From IMG/VR virus record IMGVR_UViG_2654587686_000018, positions 1 through 31,892 of that record: DNA of 31,892 nt. One strand, written 5' to 3'. Numbering within the stretch: position 1 is the stretch's first letter; the number at the start of each line of letters is the position of its first letter. This document shows positions 1-29,272 of the stretch, piece by piece. This DNA is from a virus (taxonomy: Duplodnaviria > Heunggongvirae > Uroviricota > Caudoviricetes). The position numbers were made by a program, and so were the translations under genes. The notes below the pieces were generated by a model that had not been told where the DNA came from, did not search any database, and saw only the letters and a list, made by a program, of their open reading frames with translations.

Positions 1-492
1 AATGTATTCTAGCTTGGCGTTTGAATTATTTGATTGTTTGATTTCAAGTAATAATTCTGAAAGAACATTCTCATCTTGTGTTTTTTCGAATAAAATGTAA
101 GAGAAGAAAGAATGTTCTTTATAATAATCAACATTATTATTCTCCCTTATGAACTCAAGGAAAACATTTTTTGCTTCTTTAACTTTATTTTCTTCCAATA
201 ACGACTCTACAGGTAAAAACCAGTGAGTGTCCTTTCTTTCTTGTATATCAGTTGAAGGTGGGGTATCTAAATTTCCTGTTTCGTCTAGGTTATCATCATT
301 CGATATGGATTGATTTTCATCAGTTTCAAAAGTGAGCGGGCCCGCATTCATTTTTAATTTTTTTGCAGAGATTAATTTATTAATGAGTGATTTTAATTGC
401 TTATGATAAACTACTGCGATGACAATACAAAGAATTGGCCATAGAGAAAATTTTAATGCCGTGTCTATGAGTGAGTACATTTCAGGTGTCAT
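1..492 (-). CDS. hypothetical membrane-anchored protein, 5' part only (ORF runs off the window start); AT-rich accessory gene
   Basis: My own translation of the minus strand from the ATG at 490-492: MTPEMYSLIDTALKFSLWPILCIVIAVVYHKQL..., open to position 1. One N-terminal hydrophobic helix. Very AT-rich compared with the neighbouring phage genes. Same strand as CI and 14 bp downstream of its stop. Absent from the ORF track because it has no stop inside the window. Confidence 0.5.
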   Translation of the reverse strand, partial: MTPEMYSLIDTALKFSLWPILCIVIAVVYHKQLKSLINKLISAKKLKMNAGPLTFETDENQSISNDDNLDETGNLDTPPSTDIQERKDTHWFLPVESLLEENKVKEAKNVFLEFIRENNNVDYYKEHSFFSYILFEKTQDENVLSELLLEIKQSNNSNAKLEYI

Positions 493-506
493 ACCCTACG
501 TCCTGT

Positions 507-1064
507 TTAGATGAATGATTTTTTTATGTTCGCTTTGAAATTCAGATCTTTTATAGGGCAGTCAAAGGAAATATCATCCTTAGTCACCCTAACTGAGTTA
601 TTAGGTATACGCGATACATTTCTTATACTAAATTTTTCATCAATACTCAGAAGCCACTTGCCATCGGTAATATCTTCAAAAAATGAATCAGCAATGAATA
701 TGTTGTTATTTTCTTCGATAACAATGGGGCTGACAATATTTTTAGGTAGTATTGTTTTATCAAAAAAAACAGTTCCGGCATCATATAGATTTCCATCAAC
801 TATTTTTTGCTTATGCAATCTTAGAATGTCCTGCCTTTCTATATCAAAAACAGGACCATTACCGTTAACTAGCCAGGTCAGTGATGCTCCTGTTTGTAAA
901 GCGCATGTAATTACCCAATCTGATGGGAAAATATCTCTCATGTATCTAGTGGCAAGGGTGCTTTTCGATACACCCAAGTGATCGGCTAGCGCCTGCCGTG
1001 TGGTGAAACCATATGCTTCAACCAATCTCTCGATAACTTTTCGCCCACCACTGTTGAAATCCAT
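507..1064 (-). CDS. prophage repressor, coliphage 186 CI-like
   Basis: 185 aa with an N-terminal helix-turn-helix (AYGFTTRQALADHLGVSKSTLATRYMRD) and a pattern I recall from 186 CI. Good SD (aagggga) before the ATG at 1062-1064. Divergent from the rightward early operon. Confidence 0.7.
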   Translation of the reverse strand: MDFNSGGRKVIERLVEAYGFTTRQALADHLGVSKSTLATRYMRDIFPSDWVITCALQTGASLTWLVNGNGPVFDIERQDILRLHKQKIVDGNLYDAGTVFFDKTILPKNIVSPIVIEENNNIFIADSFFEDITDGKWLLSIDEKFSIRNVSRIPNNSVRVTKDDISFDCPIKDLNFKANIKKSFI

Positions 1065-4392: not shown

Positions 4393-6408
4393 ATGCTGGA
4401 GCCTGGCCAACACCACGTCGTCAATGCCTGGCGGCGTGAAACCTTTGCGCCTGGCACTCCTTCAGATGCAACGATCACAGAACGCCGTTTGTGGGCTGTA
4501 AACCCACTGGATTATGAATGGCGTTCCCAGTACCTGCATGAAATACCCGACTGGTTAGCCGGGTATTTTGGCAACCGTTACGAAAAGCTGCTGGCTGGTC
4601 TTGACGGGCGTCGCCGTGCCAATACATTCCTGCGCAAAACTATCGGCGGGAATGTATTGCCACGTCTGCGCAAAGTGGCTGCACGTTACAAGCTGGCCGC
4701 TGATGCACTTGATCTTCCTTTCGGTAAGTCGCTGGAGCGACTGCCGTCACTTGACCGCCCGGAACTCAAAAAACTGGCTGGCCAGATATCTGGCTGGATC
4801 TCCCAGTCACTTTATGACTTCACCGATCAGTTTGTGGGCAGCACTGACGATGCCGCAGAGCTGCGCCGCCGTACGCTGGAGTCTTACGGCCATTTATGCA
4901 CGTGCTCCCTGATGCTGAACAATCAACCGCCGTACTGGGCTGAACATGAAGCCAATGGCGGACAACTGGAAACGCGTAAGGCTGAATCCGGGATTCTTCG
5001 CATGATGGCACCTGAATGGTGGTATCTGCGTCTTAAGCGGGCGCGTGATATGCAGCGTGAGCATATGGCCATTGCCGTAGGGCAGGTACAGAAAGCCGCC
5101 AGTGCTTATGTGTCACGTAAAACCCTGGGTGAATGGATAGACCAGAAAAAGCGGAACCTTGAGTTCTTTAAAAAGTTTGACCTGCTGAATGATGAAGGGC
5201 TGCGTATTGCACTGGACAGTATGGTGCACCGCAGCGTTGCTAATCCGGCGATCCGTCGCTGTGAGCTAATGGTAAGAATGAGAGGGTTTGAAGATATGGC
5301 CAATGAAGAAGGGCTGGCCGGTGAGTTTTACACCATCACCGCGCCATCACGATTCCATGCGGTACACAGCAAAGGAGGCTTTGTTTCACAATGGGATGGC
5401 TGCACCCCGCAGGACACCCAGCGCTACTTATGTGGCGTATGGGCGAAAGCCCGCGCCGCTATTTCCCGCGCAGGTATCCATGTTTTTGGTTTTCGTGTGG
5501 TAGAGCCTCACCACGATGGGACACCGCACTGGCATATGCTGCTTTTTATGCGTCCTGGTGACGTGGATACCGTGCGCGATATTCTTTGCTATCAAGCCAG
5601 AATTACCGACTCCGAAGAACTGCAAACGCCAAACGCGCTAAAGGCACGTTTCCATGTTGAAGCCATCGATCCCGCTAAAGGTTCGGCTACAGGTTATATC
5701 GCCAAATACATATCCAAAAACATTGATGGATTTGCGCTGGATGGTGAGCAGGATGATGAAACAGGGGAAAATCTGCGGGATATGGCCAAATCCGTTTCTG
5801 CATGGGCTTCACGCTGGCGCATTCGCCAGTTTCAGCAGATTGGTGGTGCGCCGGTGACAGTCTGGCGTGAGCTGCGTCGGTTGCGTGATCAGGTACTGAC
5901 TGACCGCAGAATGGATGCGGTTCTGGCTGCTGCGGATGTTGGGGACTGGGCTGCATACACCCAGGCACAGGGTGGCGCACTGGTTGCCCGCCGTGATCTG
6001 GTTGTTCGTCTGGCTTATGAAATTACAGAGCAGGGCAATGAATATGCAGAGGACGTGCAGCGCGTTCAGGGTGTCTATTCTCCATTGGTTCCAGATTCAG
6101 CGGTATGTACGCGTCTGGTGAAGTGGCAGAAGGTCGCGAAGTTGGCCGAAGCGCCAGCGGAGGCGGGTTTTTCTGGCGGCAACGCCGCCCCTTGGAGTTC
6201 TGTCAATAACTGTACGGAGGGTGGAACCCGCAGACGGTTAAAACTGGAATTGCGAAGCCGGGGTTTTGAAGGTTCTGACGATGAAATAGCCATTCTCATG
6301 CGGGGTAGTGGTTTGAGATTTGGCCAGGCGGCGTTGATTTACCGTAATGGCAGGTTACAGGAGACACGAAACGAGCCAATGCACGAGCTGTGGCCGGGGT
6401 GGTTGTAG
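4393..6408 (+). CDS. replication initiation endonuclease (P2 gpA / 186 RepA-like rolling-circle initiator)
   Basis: HUH-type motif HHDGTPHWHMLLF and catalytic tyrosine motif GYIAKYISKN. Track ORF begins at TTG 4357; the in-frame ATG at 4393 directly follows the upstream stop and is preferred. Confidence 0.85.
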   Translation: MLEPGQHHVVNAWRRETFAPGTPSDATITERRLWAVNPLDYEWRSQYLHEIPDWLAGYFGNRYEKLLAGLDGRRRANTFLRKTIGGNVLPRLRKVAARYKLAADALDLPFGKSLERLPSLDRPELKKLAGQISGWISQSLYDFTDQFVGSTDDAAELRRRTLESYGHLCTCSLMLNNQPPYWAEHEANGGQLETRKAESGILRMMAPEWWYLRLKRARDMQREHMAIAVGQVQKAASAYVSRKTLGEWIDQKKRNLEFFKKFDLLNDEGLRIALDSMVHRSVANPAIRRCELMVRMRGFEDMANEEGLAGEFYTITAPSRFHAVHSKGGFVSQWDGCTPQDTQRYLCGVWAKARAAISRAGIHVFGFRVVEPHHDGTPHWHMLLFMRPGDVDTVRDILCYQARITDSEELQTPNALKARFHVEAIDPAKGSATGYIAKYISKNIDGFALDGEQDDETGENLRDMAKSVSAWASRWRIRQFQQIGGAPVTVWRELRRLRDQVLTDRRMDAVLAAADVGDWAAYTQAQGGALVARRDLVVRLAYEITEQGNEYAEDVQRVQGVYSPLVPDSAVCTRLVKWQKVAKLAEAPAEAGFSGGNAAPWSSVNNCTEGGTRRRLKLELRSRGFEGSDDEIAILMRGSGLRFGQAALIYRNGRLQETRNEPMHELWPGWL

Positions 6409-27185: not shown

Positions 27186-27196
27186 CCATCCCATCA

Positions 27197-27227
27197 GCCC
27201 GCGCATAATGCGGGCTTTGTCGTTTGC
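27197..27227 (+). terminator. intrinsic terminator after the tail operon
   Basis: GCCCGC / GCGGGC stem at 27197-27215 followed by a T-rich tract (TTTGTCGTTTG). Confidence 0.55.
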
Positions 27228-27290: not shown

Positions 27291-27623
27291 ATGAAAAATT
27301 TCATTATGTTAGCTGTAGGCGCAGCAGTTTCATTCAATGTGTTAGCCGCTGAAGTTTTTACTGTGCCAACGGATACGAAGGCTAGCTATACGGTCTTAGA
27401 GAAGACGCGTACCGGTGATATGGCTACGATAACAACCAAGAGAGAGGGACCATCTGGAGTGTCATATTCTAAGCGCTTGTACGACTGTACGGCCTCGACG
27501 GTCAAGTATCTTGGAAGCGGTGACACTATAGAGCAAATGAATGGCTCAGCACCAGATCCAAATATGGCACCTATAATTGACCGTTCAATTGCATACTATG
27601 TTGGTCAGAAAGCCTGCCGATAA
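27291..27623 (+). CDS. moron: small secreted/periplasmic protein of unknown function (110 aa)
   Basis: Signal-peptide-like N-terminus MKNFIMLAVGAAVSFNVLA-AEV. Two cysteines in the mature part. AT-richer than the tail genes. Bracketed by two terminators. Confidence 0.6.
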   Translation: MKNFIMLAVGAAVSFNVLAAEVFTVPTDTKASYTVLEKTRTGDMATITTKREGPSGVSYSKRLYDCTASTVKYLGSGDTIEQMNGSAPDPNMAPIIDRSIAYYVGQKACR

Positions 27624-27665
27624 CCATAGCTTCATATCAGTTGATATAAATTGAGTATTCCGCTA

Positions 27666-27688
27666 ACCCGCATAATGCGGGTTTTTTT
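27666..27688 (+). terminator. intrinsic terminator after the moron
   Basis: ACCCGC-ATAAT-GCGGGT hairpin followed by TTTTTTT. Confidence 0.7.
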
Positions 27689-28191
27689 GTGCCTGTTAAC
27701 AGGCGGCACAGAACGCACACTGTACGCATTGCAATGCTCAGATACCACACGAGACACATCAATAGGATCAAGTGCACAGCGAAGCACTGACGGCTCTACA
27801 TGCTGACAAAAGAAATACTTCACAGACAAAAACGGCACTACACCGCACCCGCCTGCGGTTTCTGGATCGATAAAATTTTTCAGTTTTCTTTTCCTACAAA
27901 CCAGACCGCCGGACAGCGCCAGTTCTGGCTGATTGCGGGAAATCTCCAACTGAAAAAATTGAAAGGAATTTCAGTGATTTTCAGTAAAAAGGATCTCTCA
28001 AGAAATTGAAGGATTGTGTAAGTTACAGATAAATAATGGAAAAAATAATTTTAGATGATTGCTTGGATGCTAATAGCGCAGGGAATTATTTATAACGAAT
28101 AGCCCGCAGTGTTAAGCTGGGGGCGGGCTAGAGTATGCATGTTGGCATTTTACCTGCTGAAAAAATGAAGAATCTAACGTCGTAAATAAAA

Positions 28192-28554
28192 TTACTCTGT
28201 TTTAGGGCAGACTATTCCTTCTTGTCTCATTTTGGCTATAAAACCAACCCCATCCCCTGTAAGGTGACTTCCATCATCTTCCAGGATACCGTCATCTCTG
28301 CCGGCACTGAGTGGAGCGCTATAAATTTCCTTATGGAACAACAGGCAAGCTCTCCCAACACCTTGCTTTTTGCATTTATCAAGGCCTAAATTCGTAATGT
28401 GATACAGTACATAAGGTGGATGTGGAAGCTCAACCTCTCTAAACACAATGCTACCAACGGCCTTGCCATCAAGACGAACTTCAATTTCAAGGCCTGAGTG
28501 ATTAACTAGTTGATACTCAACACCTCTTTTTGATTCGAAAATAGAAGTTTCCAT
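28192..28554 (-). CDS. hypothetical protein, possibly a minimal GNAT-like fold (second gene of an AT-rich cassette)
   Basis: 120-aa ORF with SD GGGAG about 9 nt upstream. Segment KKQGVGRACLL resembles the acetyl-CoA-binding motif A (Q/R-x-x-G-x-G/A) of GNAT enzymes, but the protein is short for that fold. Confidence 0.5.
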   Translation of the reverse strand: METSIFESKRGVEYQLVNHSGLEIEVRLDGKAVGSIVFREVELPHPPYVLYHITNLGLDKCKKQGVGRACLLFHKEIYSAPLSAGRDDGILEDDGSHLTGDGVGFIAKMRQEGIVCPKTE

Positions 28555-28582
28555 ATCTTTTCTCCCTATATGTAAGATAAAT

Positions 28583-28981
28583 TTATTTCTCTTCGCACTC
28601 CTGCTTAGTTTTGTTATTGATAGATATTGCTGCGCATTTGTCTAGTAATAACATGCACTTATCAATATCATCTGCTTTTCTGAGTTTTACTCGTGTTACA
28701 CCTTGGTTGTTGTCAAGTGTGGAACATATCATTTCAATTTCTATGTCATTTCGATTGAATAATCCCATAATAGTTTTAGCTACCTCTCTGCTTTTTTCTA
28801 CAATATCAAACACTAAGGATAGCTTATCTGGTGCTTTTTCAGAAAAACAAAGCACTTTGCTCAGAGGCAAATTATTATGAGAAAAGTGTCCTTTGACTTC
28901 CTCTAGAAGTTCTTGGGAGGTGTAGATGGTGATTCCTGCGAATTGTCCTAGGTGGAGAGCATTTTGTCTTGTTCTGGTCAT
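28583..28981 (-). CDS. hypothetical protein (first gene of an AT-rich two-gene cassette)
   Basis: 132-aa ORF with SD AAGGA about 7 nt upstream; 28-bp gap to the downstream gene; no family recognised. Confidence 0.5.
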   Translation of the reverse strand: MTRTRQNALHLGQFAGITIYTSQELLEEVKGHFSHNNLPLSKVLCFSEKAPDKLSLVFDIVEKSREVAKTIMGLFNRNDIEIEMICSTLDNNQGVTRVKLRKADDIDKCMLLLDKCAAISINNKTKQECEEK

Positions 28982-29117
28982 GAAGAATCCTTGAACAAAT
29001 TGTTATCAAGATTTGTTATTGATGTCGGCAGAGAAAAATGTGTCGCCACTTTGCCGCCACAGGTTAGATTGAAGAGTTTTAACTATCTGATTTGTATAGG
29101 GGATGATAACAGGCAAC

Positions 29118-29160
29118 AAAAAACCCATCAACCTTGAACCGAAATGGCGGGGTTGATGGG
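29118..29160 (-). terminator. putative terminator downstream of ybjL
   Basis: 10-bp inverted repeat CCCATCAACC / GGTTGATGGG at 29124-29160 (long loop) with AAAAAA on the plus strand at 29118-29123 (U-run on the minus transcript). Confidence 0.35.
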
Positions 29161-29272
29161 CTCCACAAAATGGGGACATCAAAGAAAAGCAGTGGCACTA
29201 ATTAAGACTGATGCCCTGCGGAAAAGTTCTGCGGTTGTGCAAAAAAATTTCATTTTCAGGGCAACTTCAGTT

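Follow-up and report, generated by a model that had tools for sequence, protein, structure and literature searches.

Two small, AT-rich genes near the right end of a P2-family prophage, here called A and B, probably make up ~1 kb of moron cargo in a variable slot of an ESSI-2-like element, with the two genes independent of one another and B encoding a minimal GNAT protein. They lie in the window, by which we mean the whole stretch of 31,892 nucleotides of viral DNA that was analysed. In the literature we found no description of the A family, of the B family or of cargo next to rybB.

Gene A (28583-28981, minus strand) encodes an orphan alpha/beta protein of 132 aa (phrog_14142) from an ATG start and is the first gene inside attR; gene B (28192-28554, minus strand) encodes a truncated GNAT-fold protein of 120 aa, also from an ATG. 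The 28-bp spacer between them (28555-28582, minus strand) holds the Shine-Dalgarno sequence of B, GGGAG at 28562-28566, 7 nt before the B start, while that of A, AAGGA at 28988-28992, is found 6 nt before its own start. The GC content of the cassette is 0.32-0.38, against 0.52-0.60 in the phage structural genes and ~0.53 in ybjL. A sequence-only reading of this DNA had described two open reading frames of 132 and 120 codons with a 28-bp gap, a Shine-Dalgarno site each and an AT-rich composition, all of which we confirmed. Both are genuine genes, since homologues at 30-55% identity exist for each and dN/dS is low, at 0.13-0.35 for A and 0.05-0.21 for B (deeper comparisons only); purifying selection acts on both. 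Among the three copies of the cassette the dN/dS of B is higher (0.38-0.66), and the copy in E. coli EcPF15 carries an R68T substitution within motif A of the protein, which could mean that constraint on B is relaxed there.

Window positions 1 to ~27200 belong to a P2-family prophage of the ESSI-2/Quadragintavirus type, with 86% DNA identity over 86% of positions 1-25000 to Escherichia ESSI2_ev phages. Its right boundary is marked by a 19-nt attR core, CAGGCAACAAAAAACCCAT, at 29110-29128, and the integration target is the 3' end of the rybB sRNA gene (29115-29193, minus strand; Rfam RF00110, 105 bits, E 6e-21), an arrangement that recurs in four of the loci collected here (L001, L015, L024 and L056). 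Klebsiella phage 4LV2017 has an annotated attR identical to this core, and in EcPF15, a strain with the same cassette in a prophage of the same type, the 19-mer forms the attL beside int; prophage-free E. coli genomes match the window only rightwards from 29110 or 29115. Some ~50-70 bp inside the core are the direct repeats TGTCGCCAC and TGCCGCCAC (29041-29060), set 11 bp apart, which form the outer limit of the cargo. Four prophages integrated at rybB, with flanks that show no other relationship, all have this motif at one and the same distance from the core, and the repeats are likely to be the integrase arm-type binding sites of attR. Its start directly inside the recombination site makes the cassette prophage DNA, and neither host DNA nor a junction islet; the earlier placement at the prophage-host junction has to be corrected, because the cassette lies ~130 bp inside the prophage, to the left of the attR core. 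No second att core was found between 27700 and 29040, and an origin of the cassette by tandem integration or as a separate islet was rejected, the arm repeats and core occurring once, to its right.

In EcPF15 a single strand carries cI, a gene for a 528-aa TPR protein, int and attL in this order, and at the left end of the window this cI (507-1064) is found again, with the N-terminal part of the TPR protein encoded after it. These two arrangements together give a circular map of cI, TPR, int, attP, A and B on one strand, so that the slot is the first position downstream of int. Its contents vary among related phages. The ESSI-2 and ESSI2_ev129 records extend ~200 bp past the last baseplate gene and carry no cargo at this end; ev129 has an LbH (hexapeptide-repeat) acetyltransferase gene just downstream of int, at the other end of its record, and the E. 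coli LH13-b prophage has an LbH acetyltransferase in the att-proximal slot itself. Two canonical P2-like elements at rybB, 4LV2017 and FDAARGOS_497, have an empty slot in which ogr abuts the arm repeats, while an unrelated gene of 176 aa fills it in NT1F34. A B homologue occurs alone, ~270 bp after rybB and in the same orientation, in an IMG/VR contig (L024) and in Enterobacter sp. Cy-643 (L056). The slot thus has the features of a moron hotspot, in that it lies inside attR, has alternative contents in related phages and deviates in GC content.

A and B are found together in the slot in the window, in EcPF15 and in one Citrobacter braakii assembly, as copies that are 97% identical. EcPF15 is the only one of 5426 complete E. 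coli genomes to carry the cassette, and a tblastn search of 50,697 GenBank phage records returned no match to A or B. The pair is therefore horizontally acquired cargo and, as the sequence-only reading had expected, no conserved core of the ybjL locus.

The product of gene A matches only PHROG 14142, which has no annotated function; searches of Pfam and NCBIfam gave no match, and PADLOC returned only chance-level Cas1 fragments (E 0.004-0.009 over 39 residues). Its structure model is a beta-alpha-beta sandwich without RHH or HTH, for which the fold search returned no structural neighbour, and the domain scans, model and fold search all agree with the initial view of the upstream protein as one that lacks a ribbon-helix-helix and fits no recognisable family. 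The A family comprises ~14 homologue clusters, all enterobacterial, and no plasmid match was found. All homologues outside the cassette that could be placed stand alone beside btuC, where P2-like prophages of Salmonella and E. coli, or what remains of them, have their int end. In all 27 of the other A-family loci fetched, A is alone at the int end, and where int is intact it starts 10 bp after it; 23 IMG/VR contigs also carry A, mostly less than ~200 bp from a contig end. The btuC-type A was detected by DNA match in 158 of the 5426 complete E. coli genomes; the layout was the same in the one that was inspected. These loci imply that on the circular map an A-family gene is always the first one downstream of int, on one side of attP or the other.

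No match to B was found in Pfam, NCBIfam, PADLOC (PADLOC-DB v2.0.0) or PHROGs, and Pfam and NCBIfam gave none even at E<=1. A profile search with B retrieved 342 cluster representatives at E<=0.001 (clusters at 50% identity). Members, mostly 115-140 aa in length, are spread over Beta-, Gamma-, Alpha- and Deltaproteobacteria and Ignavibacteria, and also occur on plasmids of Pseudomonas and Xanthomonas; the loci of the family were searched for with an 11-sequence alignment as the query. One apparent relative, P0087 (1243 aa, with eight matches to the B profile), was discarded as spurious, being a repeat protein that matches only a DDHTGGG-like motif.

Structure prediction and fold search assign the core of B to the GNAT fold, with a mixed beta-sheet and a beta4-alpha3-beta5-alpha4 arrangement, and so bear out the guess that the downstream protein is GNAT-like. 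The string KKQGVGRACLL that had been singled out for this protein is present as residues 62-72. In the model its motif A, K62-K-Q-G65-V-G67-R68, sits between a strand (49-57) and a helix (66-78); it is of the Q/R-x-x-G-x-G/A type and occupies the beta4-alpha3 loop, at the position of the CoA pyrophosphate. G65 and G67 are invariant in 70 relatives of B, and in alignments the motif corresponds to RQGIGK in AAC0020 and KRQGIGS in PDB 6iuf, which we take to be the structure of AcrVA5 (the chain is named only "protein-a" in the database). A second motif, D94-G-S-H97-L-T-G-D-G...F, is specific to the B family, conserved throughout it and placed before the last helix, alpha4. Five strands make up the N-terminal part of the model, which has no more than one short strand at the C-terminus; with alpha1-alpha2 and most of beta6-beta7 missing, B is a truncated GNAT variant. 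Support for a GNAT assignment at the level of sequence is weak but consistent: PF00583 matches, all sub-threshold, occurred in only 14 of the 70 relatives (best E 2e-4), and the best PDB profile matches, to GNAT aminoglycoside acetyltransferases, aligned over motif A at a weak E of 0.013. Since it lacks the elements from which GNATs usually build their acceptor site, B could be no enzyme at all and serve instead to bind CoA or as a scaffold.

In about one third of ~24 distinct contexts, B shares its operon with known defence genes or is only a few genes away from them; the sample is small, and its shares are raw and stand without a background rate. In Sulfitobacter (L064) the gene order is hsdM-hsdS-B-dGTPase-hsdR, with B overlapping the end of hsdS by 4 nt and the dGTPase recognised by PADLOC at E 2.5e-138; Yoonia (L070) has the same order of homologous gene clusters, as judged from the clusters and not from a per-protein scan. 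An operon with overlapping stops and starts (L010) consists of an HTH gene, B, a fused AriAB (PARIS, E 8e-214) and a trypsin-like protease. B is followed by HEC-07 in one locus (L051) and takes part in an HNH-B-Zn-ribbon-type IIG arrangement in another (L065); in others it lies near PDC-S21/DUF4917 (L056), DarTG (L062), a DRT-like reverse transcriptase (L063), a Dam-type methylase (L060), a second dGTPase-like (HD_assoc) gene beside an integrase (L008) or a methyl-directed restriction enzyme (plasmid pF051). Six loci have an HTH gene and an ImmA (M78 peptidase) gene ahead of B, in an element with a serine recombinase. By guilt by association, these neighbourhoods point to a role of B in conflict between phage, mobile element and host, on one side or the other, and they sustain the defence flavour that had been suspected of the cassette, now in independent contexts. 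B is best described as the founding member of an undescribed family of GNAT-fold proteins of truncated form, which turns up repeatedly in conflict loci.

The same material can be read as ordinary lysogenic-conversion or metabolic cargo with no part in phage conflict, B for example detoxifying a small-molecule amine. About half of the B contexts have no recognisable defence gene, the best structural profile matches, weak as they are, are to aminoglycoside acetyltransferases, and the LbH acetyltransferases that LH13-b and ev129 carry in the slot may modify surface polysaccharide. This reading does not account for the third of contexts with defence genes in or near the B operon, nor for the fact that no biosynthetic or transport partner of B was found in any context examined, and we regard it as quite unlikely. 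Alternatively, B may be a counter-defence acetyltransferase of mobile elements that inactivates a host immune protein as AcrVA5 does, expressed early from its int-proximal position, with A an unrelated establishment gene. B is small, has a GNAT fold and is found on prophages, recombinase-bearing islands and large plasmids, among them Xanthomonas MOBH plasmids in which it is one of several small same-strand genes between ssb and mobH. There is also a precedent in minimal GNAT anti-CRISPRs that share no sequence similarity with one another (PMC10799925). The B profile aligns with PDB 6iuf over only 23 columns, covering motif A, alpha3 and beta5 (hhalign E 1e-4, probability 58%), and because there is no similarity outside this generic motif B probably belongs to a different family from AcrVA5. 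We consider a dedicated counter-defence role unlikely, and prefer to treat the cassette as moron cargo whose B protein may act on either side of the conflict.

A further possibility, raised by the sequence-only reading, is that A and B form a toxin-antitoxin pair. In its most specific form this would be a type II, GNAT-class system in which B acetylates aminoacyl-tRNA and A is a novel, non-RHH antitoxin that regulates its own expression through 28994-29017. With the GNAT/RHH systems (TacAT, AtaRT, KacAT and ItaRT) the cassette shares a small upstream gene, a downstream gene of GNAT fold and a location in mobile DNA; the 28-bp gap, a single candidate promoter and a perfect inverted repeat in the leader would also suit such a system, and elsewhere B follows HTH or HTH-ImmA genes, which can be antitoxin-like regulators. 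Toxins can, moreover, swap antitoxins. In GNAT/RHH systems the toxin has ~160-180 aa and is recognised by Pfam GNAT models, and the antitoxin is a ribbon-helix-helix protein of the DUF1778 type, whereas B has 120 aa, is truncated, without alpha1-alpha2, and falls below every GNAT Pfam threshold, and A shows neither a DNA-binding fold nor a DUF1778/RHH match and is without a structural neighbour. Gene order is the only defining feature of these systems that we find here, and neither A nor B matches any PADLOC or NCBIfam model.

Nor is the pairing conserved, as a survey of gene pairs made clear. A is beside B in 3 of 34 B-family loci, all three of them copies of the 97%-identical cassette, and the other 31 have no A. 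The upstream neighbours of B are many and different, or there are none: B is alone beside attR in L024 and L056, and in L002 it stands next to smpB without an upstream partner. A, in turn, stands alone in all other loci fetched, as it does, judged by DNA match, in the 158 E. coli genomes. A toxin-antitoxin pair is thus very unlikely, and the reading best supported by these data is that A and B are independent accessory genes which travel together here and form no obligate two-component system; their tight spacing and single candidate promoter would still allow the two to be functionally coupled in this lineage.

Just upstream of the Shine-Dalgarno sequence of A is a perfect 7-bp inverted repeat of putative function, AACAAAT-N10-ATTTGTT (28994-29017), found exactly where the sequence-only reading had placed it and only once in the window, against 0.01 matches expected. 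The tandem TTGTTAT repeats reported alongside it do exist, at 29000-29006 and 29013-29019, 1-2 nt away from the positions first given; the heptamer is mildly over-represented (9 found, 4.6 expected), and as its two copies overlap the inverted repeat they are no independent feature. The arms of the inverted repeat are identical in all three cassette copies, but these copies are 97% identical overall. RNA folding of the leader with its inverted repeat was no better than that of shuffled sequence (z +0.84). Since it forms no stable RNA hairpin, the repeat, if functional, would be a site for protein binding on DNA; the model of A contains no DNA-binding fold.

A candidate promoter for A and B (29103-29131, minus strand) consists of TTGATG, 17 nt and the extended -10 element TGtTATCAT (29103-29111), and is the sole promoter-like site upstream of A. 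Its -35 element lies within the rybB terminator and its -10 element in phage DNA beside the core, the latter being specific to the cassette-bearing phage. Because the promoter scan was not above chance (5 sites against 5.1 expected), this site is a mere candidate, and we infer only weakly that TTGATG/TGtTATCAT drives A and B; a leader starting from it, at a predicted position near 29096, would include both the arm repeats and the inverted repeat. At the other end of the cassette, ~60 nt past the B stop, is a GC-rich hairpin with an 8-bp stem (28100-28130, minus strand) and a poor U-tract after it. The 106-nt region with this hairpin folds with a z of -1.45, which is only suggestive of a weak terminator for an A-B transcript. 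In attP the core T-run would be preceded by a phage-encoded hairpin, ACCCAT-N8-ATGGGT, which probably terminates int transcription. As this hairpin comes before the core T-run, read-through from int across attP is unlikely, and we have downgraded it as a route to expression of A and B.

Taken together, these results place the slot between the conserved phage backbone and the putative integrase arm sites of attR, in the 3' end of rybB. A is an orphan alpha/beta protein whose family occupies the att-proximal position downstream of int in P2-like prophages. B, as modelled, keeps the beta4-alpha3 pyrophosphate-binding loop and the DGSHLTGDG motif without the N-terminal alpha1-alpha2 helices; it would most likely use acetyl- or acyl-CoA to modify an amine of a protein or small molecule in the conflict between phage, mobile element and host, serving either defence of the lysogen or counter-defence for the element. 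Location, boundaries, rarity and gene neighbourhoods, the separability of A and B and the GNAT fold are shown by these data, and catalysis by B, its part in conflict and the way in which the cassette is expressed are inferred. A broader proposal, which we hold only tentatively, is that the B family, with at least 342 clusters and absent from Pfam, NCBIfam and PADLOC, is an undescribed and widespread minimal-GNAT conflict effector or accessory that acts by acetylation and has been recruited repeatedly beside type I R-M, dGTPase, PARIS, HEC-07 and type IIG genes and into att-proximal slots of prophages, and that in this lineage it may work with A as a new two-gene system.

Were B an active acetyltransferase with a part in immunity or counter-immunity, the repertoire of defence and anti-defence would gain a compact, mobile component based on acetylation, for which AcrVA5 and the GNAT toxins are, to our knowledge, the only well-studied precedents. 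If true, this could explain the presence of a small B-family gene inside type I R-M and PARIS operons. If B were instead inert or a generic detoxifying enzyme, the locus would be another pair of prophage morons. The slot itself is a previously undescribed site for cargo in rybB-integrating P2-family phages, just across attP from int, and could be mined for accessory genes.

P2-like phages have known hotspots for such genes, namely the old/tin locus between gpA and gpQ and the cI-int interval of K139-like phages (Rousset et al. 2022, PMC9122126). The slot described here resembles them as a small, AT-rich locus with high gene turnover that holds accessory genes between conserved phage features. 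It differs in position, lying between attP and the tail/ogr end, just downstream of int across attP, and in that its contents are not known defence systems; the gpA-gpQ interval of this phage holds ogr only. As for B, the mini-GNAT anti-CRISPRs AcrVA5 and AcrVA5Bsp are carried by phages and act by acetylating Cas12a (PMC10799925). With these B has in common that it is a GNAT-fold protein in the range of ~90-120 aa carried on prophages, while relatives of B are also found inside host defence operons. Within the GNAT superfamily at large, B comes closest to minimal members such as YjdJ (PDB 5i0c) and At1g77540 (PDB 1xmt). B departs from the superfamily in falling below the Pfam thresholds and in having an all-beta N-terminal extension in place of alpha1-alpha2, and is set apart by its invariant DGSHLTGDG-F before alpha4 and by a genomic context of mobile elements and defence islands.

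The integration site of the prophage in rybB, with its arm-type repeats and core, occupies positions 29041-29128 of the window; the matching positions in locus L079 are 4451-4469. P2-family phages of at least two lineages, the ESSI-2-like and the canonical P2-like, integrate at rybB, and they share the same 19-bp core and conserved arm-type repeats of the form TGGCGxCA-N3-TGGCGxC. The rybB terminator stem would be replaced in attP by a phage-encoded hairpin, ACCCAT-N8-ATGGGT.

The cargo slot holding the A-B cassette, which encodes the 132-aa orphan protein A and the 120-aa truncated GNAT-fold protein B, lies between these repeats and the phage backbone. No convincing gene was found in the ~560 bp between B and the preceding 110-aa gene (27632-28190), which includes a terminator-like site on the minus strand (27832-27846). 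A phage contig from Salmonella S.Kent shares 27787-27985 with the window, and the match to Cronobacter phage ESSI-2 covers 27806-27852, at the extreme end of that phage's record; the interval is probably conserved phage backbone, forming the inner edge of the slot. The 110-aa gene itself (27291-27623, plus strand; phrog_13843, function unknown) lies between two almost identical intrinsic terminators (27196-27216 and 27665-27683), the signature of a moron inserted past the last baseplate gene. Judged by its hydrophobic N-terminus, the product looks like a secreted or lipoprotein-type protein. Other prophages of the ESSI-2-like type, LH13-b among them, carry the gene; that of E. coli EcPF15 lacks it.

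The EcPF15 prophage (L001, 9352-11866 and 12406-12768) has lost nearly all of its tail genes, so that the last two baseplate genes come straight after the capsid gene, but it keeps the A-B cassette; its copy of B carries R68T in GNAT motif A, the CoA-binding loop. At the left end of the window, beside cI (507-1064, minus strand), a partial AT-rich ORF cut by the window edge (1-492, minus strand) has no match in Pfam or PADLOC and encodes, at 88% identity, the N-terminus of a 528-aa TM/TPR protein of EcPF15. As the gene for this protein sits between the CI repressor gene and int in EcPF15, while int directly follows cI in the reference phage ESSI2_ev129, the cI-int interval is a second cargo slot of the same prophage.

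Of 5426 complete genomes of E. coli, 158 carry a paralogue of A (44% identity). At the three E. coli loci examined (L016, L017 and L075) it is intact next to btuC, within a degraded prophage, with the integrase truncated or missing and the replication gene a pseudogene, which suggests that the paralogue is retained once the prophage decays.

Relatives of B occur on large plasmids in runs of small same-strand genes. On Xanthomonas MOBH plasmids (L072) they are flanked by PRTRC/ssb on one side and by a helicase, a TPR protein and mobH on the other; on P. aeruginosa pF051 (L071) a B homologue directly follows a homologue of a methyl-directed restriction enzyme. The 1243-aa repeat protein P0087, eight "stretches" of which scored against the B profile, is probably not homologous, since its match is confined to a DDHTGGG...GFTFIA repeat resembling the B-family DGSHLTGDG...F motif. 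Small B-family genes that no PADLOC model matches are also embedded in, and translationally coupled within, defence operons: hsdM-hsdS-B-dGTPase-hsdR in Sulfitobacter/Yoonia (L064, 3111-11873; L070), and HTH-B-AriAB-trypsin, in which AriAB is a fused PARIS (L010, 7748-11650).
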